Source: a virus
DNA: 64,000 nt
Direction: 5' to 3' (one strand)
Virus record (IMG/VR): IMGVR_UViG_3300045051_000531
In this document: positions 1-3,716 of the stretch, in pieces
Numbering within the stretch: the first letter of the stretch is position 1
Layout of the letters: the number at the start of each line of letters is the position of its first letter
The notes under the pieces: generated by a model
Seen by the model: the letters and a program-made list of their open reading frames with translations, nothing else
The model's database searches: none
Told to the model about the DNA's origin: nothing
Program-made: the position numbers and the translations under genes

Positions 1-8
1 AGTTCTAT

Positions 9-209
9 GTGTCCGATCTCGTCAAAACCGATTCGGGCTTATACACTATGACCCGGCACAAGTCGGCGGAGGAGGCCGTCGAGTTCATCGAGAAGCGCCT
101 GACGACCTCACCGAGCGGCTCCAAGCTGTACCTGCTGCAGAGCGTGGCGACGTTCACCGTCGAAGCCAAGATCAACCGCGAAGACATCGGGGCCGCAGAT
201 GGCGGCTGA
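9..209 (+). CDS. hypothetical protein (may be truncated at the window edge)
   Basis: ORF track; overlaps the next ORF in operon-like fashion. Confidence 0.5.
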   Translation: MSDLVKTDSGLYTMTRHKSAEEAVEFIEKRLTTSPSGSKLYLLQSVATFTVEAKINREDIGAADGG

Positions 210-420
210 TGTCCACAAACAGCTTGTCCACATCGCTACGACACACGGGATAAACCTCGCGAAAGTAGCCCGCGTGGCCAAGCTGCTCGGGCACACCGAC
301 GAACAGAAAATCGTGGAGTACATCCGACAAAGCGGGTTCGCTGTTGTCCGAAATGTGTCCGATGGTAAGGGCGGTTTTCGGCGTCAGACCGAGGAGGAGT
401 TCGCCGATAAGTTCAAGTAA
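199..420 (+). CDS. small hypothetical protein, possibly HTH-like
   Basis: 73-aa ORF with helical segment INLAKVARVAKLLGHTDEQKIVEYIR; stop lies 26 nt before array 1. Confidence 0.55.
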   Translation: MAADVHKQLVHIATTHGINLAKVARVAKLLGHTDEQKIVEYIRQSGFAVVRNVSDGKGGFRRQTEEEFADKFK

Positions 421-446
421 TTAGGTACTCCTATATCGCCGAACGG

Positions 447-530
447 GGTGTGGCGGGGCGGGGCGGGGCGAGGCGTGGCGGGGCGCGGCATGGCAGGGCA
501 GGGCAAGGCCAGCTCTTTACGAAGCGCTGG
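447..530 (+). ncRNA. GGY-NN pentamer array 1 with 3' hairpin (putative guide RNA, VIPR-like vrRNA)
   Basis: 12 in-phase pentamers at 447-506 (GGTGT, then 11 GGC-NN), then GG and hairpin ccagctctt-TACG-aagcgctgg (509-530, 8 of 9 bp paired). Confidence 0.8.
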
Positions 531-560
531 GGTTGACGAACTCATACGTACCACATCCGC

Positions 561-664
561 GGCATGGCAAGGCTAGGCCTGGCATGGCAGGGCGATGCGG
601 GGCGAGGCGTGGCAGGGCCTGGCATGGCAAGGCTTGGCGAGGGTTTCTTTTTACGAAAAGAAAC
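561..664 (+). ncRNA. GGY-NN pentamer array 2 with 3' hairpin (putative guide RNA, VIPR-like vrRNA)
   Basis: 16 in-phase pentamers at 561-640 (15 GGC-NN, one TGC-GG), then GG and perfect 9-bp hairpin gtttctttt-TACG-aaaagaaac (643-664). Confidence 0.85.
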
Positions 665-701
665 GGTCGGCGGACCAATACGCATAAGAATGAGAGGCTT
701 A

Positions 702-1151
702 ATGAACGGCTATGTGTACGTTCTGACTGACGGAACCGCGTTCAAAATTGGTTACACGAGTGATCGTCCGATTGTACGGCAATGGGGTTGCCAAGTCGGA
801 AACCCGATTCAGTTAACCTTGGTACTAACGATACAGAGCAATGAGCCTGACGTGCTGGAGCGTGAGTTGCATCGACGTTACTGGCATCGAAAGGCGTTAC
901 CACATAAACAAACCGGGGAATGGTTCAACCTGACCCCTGAGGATCTCAAGGAGATCCAGGAGAACTATCATGTCAAAAAACCTTACGATCCAATTTCACC
1001 TGGTGGGCACTCGCCCTTTGATGTTCGACCGGTACCCCGGGGACAACAAGACCAAGCTCCCGGACGACGAGAAGATGTACCTGGACGAGCATCGCCATTT
1101 GACGATCCCAACGATCAACCTGTTTTCGATGCTGGTGGCCGAAAATACTAA
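702..1151 (+). CDS. GIY-YIG superfamily (T5orf172/MUG113-like) nuclease
   Basis: Motifs GYVYVL, FKIGYT, LERELHRRY, GEWF. ATG at 702 follows GAGAGG. The track ORF's extension to 564 runs through the repeat array and is not credible. Confidence 0.75.
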   Translation: MNGYVYVLTDGTAFKIGYTSDRPIVRQWGCQVGNPIQLTLVLTIQSNEPDVLERELHRRYWHRKALPHKQTGEWFNLTPEDLKEIQENYHVKKPYDPISPGGHSPFDVRPVPRGQQDQAPGRREDVPGRASPFDDPNDQPVFDAGGRKY

Positions 1152-1596
1152 ATCAGTTTGCAAACTGTTTCTTGGTAAAAATGGCAGAGAGGTCGCATTA
1201 GGCATCACGACGTTCTGCACGATCGAGCCGTTCGAGATCCCGATATGCGACGAAAAGGGCCCCATCACGTTTGCCGATTTCAACGACAAGGTTCGCGTGG
1301 TGAAGCACGTCGCCAGGTTGAACAAGGGTGTTCCGAACCCGAAGTCACGCCCGCTGATCGAGCTCCCATGGAGTATTGCCGGTACGATCACGTACACCGA
1401 GAACCCCTACTGCCCGTACCAGACTTTGCGCGACTGTTTCATCAAAGGAGGTATCATCGGGCTCGGGACGTTCCGACAGCACTTCGGCAAGTTCAGACTC
1501 GCACGATTCGAAACCGTCGCTGAAAGCGAGAGCGGGTTCGACATCGAGAAACCCGTGGACGACACTGAAGAGGCTCCTGCGGTCAAAAAGACCTGA
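970..1596 (+). CDS. stand-alone Cas7/RAMP-like RNA-binding protein (Vipr-like)
   Basis: RAMP-type N-terminal strand TIQFHLVGTRPLMFDR, then TIPTINLFSML, and C-terminal Gly-rich loop GGIIGLGTFRQHFGKF; AGGAG RBS; next to the pentamer arrays. Confidence 0.75.
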   Translation: MSKNLTIQFHLVGTRPLMFDRYPGDNKTKLPDDEKMYLDEHRHLTIPTINLFSMLVAENTKSVCKLFLGKNGREVALGITTFCTIEPFEIPICDEKGPITFADFNDKVRVVKHVARLNKGVPNPKSRPLIELPWSIAGTITYTENPYCPYQTLRDCFIKGGIIGLGTFRQHFGKFRLARFETVAESESGFDIEKPVDDTEEAPAVKKT

Positions 1597-1604
1597 ACGC
1601 AGCC

Positions 1605-3716
1605 CTACTTCCGCGGCAGGACCTCGTCGGCGATGAACGCCTTGGTCACCGCCGGCCAGGCCTGCGCGGAGTGGAACAGCGCCATGCAGGCGAAGTTGAT
1701 GGCGTGCAGGATGTCGTCGCTGCGACGCGACATCCGCTTCACGAGTCGAGTCGGGGACCCCCTGGGGTTCTCGATGGCTTCCTCGTAGACGTTGAGGAGA
1801 TCCCTGAGGTGATCCTTGAGGTACCGCTCGGAGTCCGGGAGCCGAACCATGCCGCGTTTGATGAGCTCGAACAGGAGCAACAGGGAGCGCGGCTTGTCCA
1901 GGGTGTAACTCGACCTGGCACCAACGACGAGGGCCCGGTTGTAAAACACGATCGGCTTCGTGACCCCGAGGACGTTGTAGGTGAACGGGACGATCCTGGT
2001 CTCGGGCCAGCCGTGGGCCCGGATCTGACCTTCCTGGACGTTGCCTTGGCCGCCGTAGTCCAAGGCGATCCAGTTCGCCTTCGACATCGCACCGACACGG
2101 ACCGCCATCTCGGTCTCCTGGGACTGATCGATCTCGTAGGGCACCTTGTGGAGCCACTTGATGTCGATGGAGCCGTCGCCACGGAGCCCAGCCAGCGCCA
2201 TCGCGGTGTTCGAGATGAAGTCGTCGGTATCCGAAGCCTTCTCTTTACCGCGACCACCCCAGTCGATTCCCAGGGCGACCTGGATGTACTCCGACACCGG
2301 CATGTTCTCAGGTTCACACGGCTTCACCGTTGCTGCGGCGACGAGTTGATCCTGGGTGAGCAGCTTGGCACCGACGTCGAAGCTCTCCCCGAGGACCTCG
2401 TTGTAGTAGATGTATTGCGGTTTGTCCCGGCGGACATCCAGGATGATTTCCCAGTCCTTCGGGGACTCGTAGTGCATCGGCAGGATGACCTGGGGGACAT
2501 GGTACCCCGCGAAGCTTCGCTGCCGTTCCGGGTAGTCGTGGACATAGAACCCGGCTCGGCTGTTGGCCTGGCGGCCACACTTCGTGCAGATCAGGGTTCG
2601 ATGGGAGCCGTCATTCCGTTTCCCGTCGCCGACCATCTTGAGGAGATCGGCGTCGGTGCAGCACCGGTTCAGGTGACCGCAGATGCAGGGGATATGCCAG
2701 TGGGCCTGCGAGCTGTCCTCCCAGAACAGGTGGGCAGTGTTATCGAAGGTCTTCGGGGTCCCCGTGAGCCGGACCAGCTTGAACGGCGACGCCGCCAAGC
2801 TTTGCTCCACGATGGGGAGATCGGAGTGATCCATGTCCTGGACCTCATCGCAGTCCAGTTCGTCGGCTGGGGTACCACGCAGGCGGGTTGGATCGCCAGA
2901 GCTGTACCCGTAGTACAACGAGCTCCCGTCCCCGATGTTGCGCTGCAGCACGGAGTCCATGGTGAGCTCACCGATGATGTGCTCCTTGATGGGGCTCATC
3001 GCGATGAACGGTCTGACGTAGTTCTGGCTGAACTTCCTGACCTGCTCGTACAACGGCATCACGGTCAGGATGTTGTAGTTCGGCTGGATCCGGGCCCGCA
3101 AGATCTGGGCAGCAGCTTGGGAGGTCGACTTCGATACCTGGCGTCCACAGAGCAGGAGAAGCCGTCTACTGACTTCTCGGATCTTGAAGAACGGTTCAAA
3201 CATGAAGTGAGACCAATCCAGGCTGTACGGTTTCGACCGTAGCCTGAAGATCAGCGGGAGCAGTTTGACCAGGGAGTCCTGGCGACCCGCAACGAGGTCC
3301 CGCTTCAACTTGATCAGGGCGCCTTCCAGAGCAGCGAGCTGCTCCGGTGACACCTTGGTGACTTCACGCATCACTAGTTCGTAGCGACTCCACCCCTGTT
3401 TTGCAAGGATGGTGTCCGCGCGAACAATTTCACGGTACCTGCCGTGGAGCCCCAGGACACGTTCTGTCGGTCCCAGTCCTGGGGACCATTGGACCGATGA
3501 AGGTAACTCTTCATGCTCCGTCGCGCTCCTAAACGGACCCAGGAAACGAACCTGGATTCCGCCGCTCAGGGTCTGGTCTATCTCGGCCTCCTGATCCTCG
3601 TAATCGGTGTCCTCGGTAGCATCATCAAGTTCATCCTGGGGCTCGTAGTCCCCATGCTGATCATCGGTGGTGTCTCCGCGTTCATATTCTTCGTCGTTAT
3701 CCCGTGGCTGAACCAC
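1605..3716 (-). CDS. terL: phage terminase large subunit
   Basis: Walker A CGRQVSKST, Walker B ELDCDEVQD, CICG/CTKCG Zn ribbon, nuclease motifs ALGIDWGG and DDILHA; acidic N-terminus, start uncertain. Confidence 0.85.
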   Translation of the reverse strand: MVQPRDNDEEYERGDTTDDQHGDYEPQDELDDATEDTDYEDQEAEIDQTLSGGIQVRFLGPFRSATEHEELPSSVQWSPGLGPTERVLGLHGRYREIVRADTILAKQGWSRYELVMREVTKVSPEQLAALEGALIKLKRDLVAGRQDSLVKLLPLIFRLRSKPYSLDWSHFMFEPFFKIREVSRRLLLLCGRQVSKSTSQAAAQILRARIQPNYNILTVMPLYEQVRKFSQNYVRPFIAMSPIKEHIIGELTMDSVLQRNIGDGSSLYYGYSSGDPTRLRGTPADELDCDEVQDMDHSDLPIVEQSLAASPFKLVRLTGTPKTFDNTAHLFWEDSSQAHWHIPCICGHLNRCCTDADLLKMVGDGKRNDGSHRTLICTKCGRQANSRAGFYVHDYPERQRSFAGYHVPQVILPMHYESPKDWEIILDVRRDKPQYIYYNEVLGESFDVGAKLLTQDQLVAAATVKPCEPENMPVSEYIQVALGIDWGGRGKEKASDTDDFISNTAMALAGLRGDGSIDIKWLHKVPYEIDQSQETEMAVRVGAMSKANWIALDYGGQGNVQEGQIRAHGWPETRIVPFTYNVLGVTKPIVFYNRALVVGARSSYTLDKPRSLLLLFELIKRGMVRLPDSERYLKDHLRDLLNVYEEAIENPRGSPTRLVKRMSRRSDDILHAINFACMALFHSAQAWPAVTKAFIADEVLPRK

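Follow-up and report, generated by a model that had tools for sequence, protein, structure and literature searches.

What do the variable bases of two short-period repeat arrays specify in the genome of an uncultured soil phage? The arrays lie near the start of the window (the whole 64,000-nt stretch of DNA analysed here, from IMG/VR record IMGVR_UViG_3300045051_000531), and the contig, of 191,518 bp, is the phage genome. Each array is built from five-base units in which an invariant GGY alternates with two free bases (NN). This is the format of VIPR, a CRISPR-like system of RNA-guided DNA silencing published in 2026 that consists of a Vipr RAMP protein, an accessory gene (vap), and vrRNAs of alternating GGY and NN (10.64898/2026.04.26.720920). 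Judged by their sequence, both arrays are candidate guide RNAs of a VIPR system. In all likelihood, positions 447-1596 make up a complete VIPR locus, with vrRNA1, vrRNA2, vap, and the gene for the Vipr RAMP protein, on a lytic-type phage of 191 kb. As part of the same explanation, the two NN codes are very probably genuine target specifications. The locus adds one member to a published system, with neither a new mechanism nor a target.

Arrays, tails, and genes of the locus

The guide region of vrRNA1 occupies positions 447-508 on the plus strand and comprises 12 GGY-NN units (447-506) and a closing GG (507-508). Direct reading and a GGYNN caller both give one GGT-GT unit followed by 11 GGC-NN units, so that the code of array 1 is GT.GG.GG.GG.GA.GT.GG.GC.AT.AG.AG.AA. 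A thirteenth unit, GGC-CA (507-511), was considered and rejected; since it sits in the stem of the tail hairpin (509-530), 12 is the right unit count. The guide region of vrRNA2 (561-642, plus strand) holds 16 GGY-NN units (561-640) and ends likewise in a closing GG (641-642). Its code is AT.AA.TA.CT.AT.AG.GA.GG.GA.GT.AG.CT.AT.AA.TT.GA, and in unit 8 (TGC-GG) TGC replaces GGC. The NN strings that the earlier note had read from both arrays agree exactly with direct reading and with the caller, and its count of 22 A/T among the 32 variable bases of array 2 is correct. Both arrays are far beyond chance, and the genome holds no further arrays or solo guides beyond these two.

Behind each array stand GG and a UACG-tetraloop hairpin. 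The vrRNA1 tail (509-530, plus strand) pairs CCAGC-U-CUU with AAG-C-GCUGG around the UACG loop, while the vrRNA2 tail (643-676, plus strand) has a 9-bp stem with a UACG tetraloop (643-664) and a small second hairpin (665-676). The outer stems differ and both pair, a covariation that, with two copies only, is anecdotal. The decamer YTTTACGAAR occurs twice in the whole genome, once behind each array. No pseudoknot was seen in the tails, each of which is a simple UACG-tetraloop hairpin. Array 2 together with its tail (556-700) folds more stably than shuffled sequences (z = -3.06), partly because CT and AG units give AGGCC/GGCCT self-complementarity inside the array. Tails of another kind occur among related loci (L013-L016 and L019), where a tRNA-like element with the T-arm motif GGTTCGATTCC stands behind each vrRNA array (e.g., L015:3631-3675). 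The resemblance suggests processing by tRNA-maturation enzymes. On the subject of tails, the available portion of the VIPR preprint mentions pseudoknots and hammerhead ribozymes and makes no mention of tRNA-like elements.

Two overlapping genes follow the arrays on the same strand. The gene vipr (970-1596, plus strand) encodes a stand-alone RAMP (Cas7-like) protein of 208 aa with a C-terminal glycine-rich loop, GLGTFRQHFGKF. This protein has no match in Pfam. Its AF2 model reaches a pLDDT of 91.3, and the best Foldseek matches of the model in the PDB are Cmr4, Csm3, and type VII Cas7 (probability 1.00, E about 1e-5, TM 0.45-0.60). We therefore count a Cas7-like fold, at the level of a predicted structure, among the things that the analysis demonstrates. 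The BFVD matches of Vipr include one phage protein named 'RAMP superfamily protein'. The glycine-rich loop (GLGTFRxxFGKF) and the N-terminal strand are kept in 36 Vipr homologues.

The vap-like accessory gene (702-1151, plus strand) precedes vipr and overlaps it, its frame being open to 1151. Residues 3-86 of the product form a predicted T5orf172/MUG113 (GIY-YIG-like) domain, with Pfam matches above cut-offs to PF13455 (E 6.8e-11) and PF10544 (E 3.9e-8). The AF2 model of Vap (pLDDT 90) finds best matches that are weak but consistent, namely the GIY-YIG proteins UPF0213, Slx1, and UvrC-N. Residues Y6, K15, G17, R26, E53, H57, E73, W74, and F75 are invariant, and at no fewer than 46 related loci a homologous T5orf172-like ORF immediately precedes vipr. 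The vap frame stays open 116-233 nt past the FDRY motif of vipr in 45 of 45 loci (970-1151 in the window and 44 related loci), and the relative frame is identical throughout. The remaining alternative frame usually closes within about 40 nt. The open frame represents either a conserved gene overlap of 55-95 codons or a by-product of GC-rich third positions. At L001, L005, L006, L008, and L011 (about 2735-2745), the upstream array runs directly into vap: the NN of the last unit, AT, and the next G form the ATG of M-G-F-V-Y-I-I, so that the guide overlaps the start codon.

The remaining surroundings of the locus are as follows. Just upstream of array 1 is a small ORF of 73 aa (199-420), for which Pfam offers no more than weak hints of a helix-turn-helix (E about 0.05). 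The terminase large-subunit gene, which is convergent, comes after vipr; apart from vap and the terminase gene, the neighbours of the locus are unrelated genes.

Linkage of arrays and Vipr across a family of loci

We found 80 homologues of Vipr in IMG/VR, none of which carries a name, and the nearest are 63-68% identical (P0005-P0008). When Vipr was compared by tblastn with 50,697 phage records, the sole match was in Burkholderia phage vB_E436 (39%). The link between the repeats and the protein is observed directly across this family. Arrays of at least six GGY-NN units occur at 78 of the 80 IMG/VR loci that encode a Vipr relative, and GGY-NN arrays occur at all of the cellular-genome loci with a Vipr relative (19/19). 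Taking viral and cellular loci together, array and protein are linked on the same strand in 97 of 99 homologous loci. The arrays flank vipr, directly upstream or downstream and on the vipr strand, the exception being one minor six-unit call.

The scaffold of these arrays is nearly constant while the NN positions are free. Across 2,741 units from 161 distinct arrays, the triplet is GGC in 92% and GGT in 3%, and all 16 NN dinucleotides are present. Each of the last three units reads AA in 44-59% of the 161 arrays, and these units are 76-89% A/T, compared to 45% in the interior. Furthermore, the last 2-4 units are identical among different guides of one sub-clade (e.g., AA AA AA TA or AA AA CA). 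From these patterns, the 3'-terminal 2-4 units appear to behave as a constant handle, or as a nucleation or PAM-like requirement, and not as free guide positions. The 3' ends of the two arrays studied here, AT AG AG AA (495-506) and AT AA TT GA (629-640), are A/T-rich in a way that partly fits the family trend. An unusually long constant A-tract handle is seen at L058:3571-3685, where GGC-AA occurs 12 times in a row at the end of the array, ahead of a GACAA/GACAAAACAA repeat.

The interior NN of L001-L080 are skewed as well. The first N is G in 41% of interior units and C in only 12%; the commonest pairs are GC, GG, AA, GA, and GT, and CT (1.7%) and CC (2.4%) are rare. This skew resembles codon positions 1-2 of a sense strand, except that pairs beginning with C are markedly scarce, which perhaps reflects avoidance of pairing with the many GG.

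Target searches with the two codes

In published VIPR systems, NN pairs with DNA and every third target base is skipped (10.64898/2026.04.26.720920, 10.64898/2026.04.26.720927). Natural targets are mostly coding, with the skip at the wobble position (10.64898/2026.04.26.720920). Whether this code applies to the present family can be judged from a guide common to IMG/VR relatives L065, L069, and L075 (array 3574-3638; Vipr 39% identical), of which nine variable units were scanned. This control guide matches two mutually homologous IMG/VR contigs at 23 of 26 NN bases, with 11 consecutive units perfect; shuffled guides reached at most 18-20 of 26 on the same contigs. The likely natural target is L315:319-356 on the plus strand and L316:1268-1305 on the minus strand. 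The match lies on the sense strand of an ORF of 118-129 aa and skips codon position 3; the ORF belongs to a tail module and adjoins a baseplate-hub gene (phrog_196). The final two units of the control guide, which are constant within its sub-clade, are unpaired. Since this guide matches at 23/26 with the skip at the wobble position, our data indicate that the published code holds in this Vipr family and that exact seeds can find real targets. The rule applied in the earlier note, that every third base is skipped, is thus the published rule and works for a relative of this locus. Its idea that the skip falls on wobble positions is borne out at codon position 3 of the relative's target but is not new, having been put in print in 10.64898/2026.04.26.720920 (fig. 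S10 text) and in the abstract of 10.64898/2026.10.15.759431. Another control, a Paraburkholderia prophage guide, had no match in 213 Paraburkholderia genomes.

We searched the phage's own DNA with both codes. In its own genome, at skips of 0-3 and against 100 base-shuffled guides, the best skip-1 matches were 17/24 and 20/32, the same as the null. Self-targeting was rejected, the sole perfect matches, at skip 3, being the arrays themselves. Published VIPR also shows an absence of self-targeting, and its R-loop growth begins at the 3' tail (10.64898/2026.04.26.720920, 10.64898/2026.04.26.720927, and 10.64898/2026.10.15.759431). Within 8 kb on either side (±8 kb), the best matches were 16/24 (P 0.49) and 20/32 (P 0.10), which is null level, and the idea of a guide beside a near-copy of its target was dropped on this ground. 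The earlier observation of no convincing match in the window therefore extends to the whole genome. When the 80 related VIPR loci were taken as targets of both guides, the result was again at null level. Sliding windows of 10 units from 159 family arrays, compared with all DNA gathered here, gave 19 matches of at least 18/20 versus 7 for shuffled windows; none reached 19, and the top matches were discarded as low-complexity.

IMG/VR was searched with five exact 8-unit seeds that together span the whole of array 2 and each half of array 1. Units 9-16, 1-8, and 5-12 of array 2 had 16, 19, and 13 matches, respectively, with a best full-length match of 24/32. For array 1, units 5-12 had 6 matches and units 1-8 had over 120, with a best full-length match of 21/26. 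The unseeded part of each guide was always at chance level, and unit-shuffled units 9-16 of array 2 had 37 matches compared to 16 for the real seed. An array 1 seed match in a capsid gene (L130, L132, and L134) was rejected as chance, since its nine 3' units are perfect only with CA counted. That CA lies within the hairpin stem, the 5' units match at 3/8, and the skip falls on codon position 1. A comparison of the capsid match with L274 was also set aside: the common DGANI codons looked homologous, and the proteins are unrelated.

Larger collections were searched with longer seeds. Units 6-16 of array 2 (22 fixed bases) had no matches in the metagenome and genome collections. Units 3-12 of array 1 (20 fixed bases) had three metagenome matches, at 22/24, 22/24, and 20/24. 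One array 1 match falls within rodZ, where codon position 1 is skipped, another covers the start of lptA together with its ribosome-binding site (operon lptA-lptB-rpoN), and the third lies in an unannotated ORF beside glycosyltransferase-like genes. They were rejected as targets, their contexts being bacterial, of housekeeping type, and mutually unrelated; three matches is roughly the expectation for a 20-base pattern in such a collection, the size of which is estimated. At up to three mismatches, array 1 had no match in 301 Pseudomonadota genomes, where the control had one match, and a reading of array 1 as a conserved-motif pattern was abandoned on the same count (0/301).

No near-perfect target turned up in any collection scanned. 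The searches used exact seeds or allowed at most three mismatches, so the result reads as 'not found' and not as 'absent'. Moreover, the seeds used on the metagenome and genome collections extended into the final two units at the 3' end, where pairing may not occur, and less should be read into these two negative results than first appears. The earlier note would take a lack of enrichment of gapped matches over shuffled controls as refuting its reading; within the reach of these searches there is indeed no enrichment for this locus in its own genome, in the ±8 kb neighbourhood, in the 80 related loci, in IMG/VR, or in the metagenome and genome collections.

Readings of the codes and comparison with known systems

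The composition of array 2 bears on a first alternative, in which genuine guides are directed at non-coding, AT-rich stretches (promoters, origins) of the host or a rival element instead of at codon-registered genes. Array 2 is 69% A/T compared to 43% at codon positions 1 and 2 of this phage (binomial P about 0.003), an excess that hints at a target outside genes or of lower GC content. Published VIPR can silence when its site is close to a promoter, whichever strand is bound (10.64898/2026.04.26.720920), and the chance-level array 1 match at lptA spans both the Shine-Dalgarno sequence and the start codon. However, about one in ten of the 161 family arrays is at least as A/T-rich as array 2, and A-richness of the 3' units is family-wide. 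The published natural targets and our positive control are coding, with a wobble skip, and no AT-rich non-coding site was found. We consider this alternative unlikely. The A/T-richness from which the earlier note had suggested a promoter or foreign DNA is real, but it is a weak clue.

Slightly less likely again is that one or both arrays are decayed, a decoy, or currently target-less. An example would be array 1, whose 5' half contains GG.GG.GG, as a low-information remnant or a drift-kept paralogue of array 2. Indeed, the interior of array 1 falls within the most G/C-rich 2% of family arrays. When the arrays are aligned at their 3' ends (447-506 versus 581-640), 14 of 24 variable bases are common to both, among them an in-register GG GA GT (unit shuffles give P about 0.01). 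This suggests duplication, and the arrays may be diverged duplicates aimed at related sites. The lack of targets in our searches would also fit, and satellite-encoded vrRNAs that direct decoys are described in 10.64898/2026.10.15.759431. On the other hand, the GGY scaffolds are near-perfect (one TGC in 28 units) and the UACG hairpins are intact, neither of which is expected in decay, and an unsampled soil competitor would explain the lack of matches equally well.

A separate proposal of the earlier note concerned an internal duplication in array 2. The 14-mer GGCCTGGCATGGCA does occur at both 576 and 616; since GGC is invariant, its copies have only five variable bases in common, and NN shuffles reach such sharing in 11-14% of trials (P about 0.11-0.14). 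Of the extras proposed beyond VIPR identity, then, promoter targeting is weak, duplication is within chance, and the wobble logic is already published.

It is highly improbable that the repeats, instead of being guides, form a G-quadruplex, control the downstream operon as a leader element, or are simply a G-rich microsatellite. No sigma-70-like promoter was found at the locus and there is no matching Rfam family, yet the period is strictly 5 nt with three fixed and two free bases, a Cas7-fold protein is encoded on the array strand at 97 of 99 homologous loci, and a conserved hairpin stands behind each array, all of which agrees point by point with the published definition of VIPR.

Taking the locus as a VIPR system with genuine guides, a mechanism can be proposed by analogy with the systems of Escherichia phage SUSP1 and Pseudomonas fulva, whose structures have been solved (10.64898/2026.04.26.720927). 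One Vipr protomer would bind each repeat and sequester its GGY bases, while the NN bases would be presented to the DNA strand with every third base flipped out. The R-loop would nucleate near the 3' hairpin and extend toward the 5' end. The bound filament would then block transcription, and the GIY-YIG-like Vap may additionally act on DNA. Expression and processing of the vrRNAs, binding, silencing, and the identity of the targets are all things that we infer. No sequence-level link connects Vipr with the characterised type II proteins, and the transfer of mechanism therefore rests on fold, architecture, and one positive control (39% identity). The targets would most likely be genes, read in codon register, that belong to a competitor in the host (a phage, satellite, or prophage).

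The clade is phage-borne and always paired with a small Vap predicted to be GIY-YIG-like (T5orf172) in which Tyr, Arg, and Glu are invariant, so that it may cut or nick and not only repress. Tentatively, we propose that this widespread Vipr clade may differ from the characterised silencing-only viral VIPRs in that Vap would cut or nick the guided target, the A-rich last 2-4 units would serve as a constant nucleation handle or PAM-like element, and the two guides, as paralogues that have diverged, would follow two alleles of a single site in an unsampled rival. That all of this holds jointly is doubtful.

The targets, if identified, would name the competitor (a rival phage, satellite, or prophage) and hence the host of this uncultured 191-kb soil phage. 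The host is otherwise not identifiable, because the closest terminase of a cultured phage is only about 22% identical to that of this phage. In addition, guide length and register in VIPR target prediction would be refined by the constant A-rich 3' units, the unpaired last two units of the control guide, and the GIY-YIG-like accessory.

Among known systems, TIGR-Tas shares with this locus non-CRISPR tandem guide arrays found in phages, while its 18-nt period and Nop-domain Tas effector are both absent here. The Cas7 proteins of class 1 CRISPR-Cas (Csm3, Cmr4, and type VII Cas7) resemble Vipr in fold and in the glycine-rich loop. By analogy, one protomer would also serve each periodic guide unit, with a thumb interrupting the duplex. 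Unlike class 1 CRISPR-Cas, the period is 5 nt instead of 6, and according to the VIPR papers each unit leaves out three bases of the guide and one of the target. CRISPR repeats of 25-40 nt, spacers, and other cas genes were not found, and positions 1-3000 of the window show only repeats of 5-nt period (with derived 10/15-nt periods).

Seven types of VIPR have been published (10.64898/2026.04.26.720920), and 99 VIPR-like clusters were recovered in a further preprint (10.64898/2026.10.21.760802). As in types III and V, an accessory of a nuclease superfamily, predicted here, adjoins vipr; those types belong to bacterial defence islands and have HNH-type or helicase accessories, whereas this locus is carried by a phage and lies beside a terminase gene. 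The closest comparison is with type II VIPR (Escherichia phage SUSP1 and a Pseudomonas fulva prophage). Vipr has no detectable sequence similarity to Vipr of cultured phages except that of vB_E436 (39%). The tail is a plain UACG-tetraloop hairpin here and pseudoknotted there, and the accessory is T5orf172/GIY-YIG-like here and a winged-helix or HTH DNA binder there. Both vrRNAs of this locus lie upstream of the genes. Against these differences, the locus and type II VIPR have in common a small stand-alone RAMP, a two-gene phage operon, and a structured 3' tail. The arrays of both run to 9-16 YNNGG units (12 and 16 here), in which GGY is invariant and NN varies, and both lack self-targeting. 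Finally, the code in which 1 nt is skipped is seen here too, for a member of the family.
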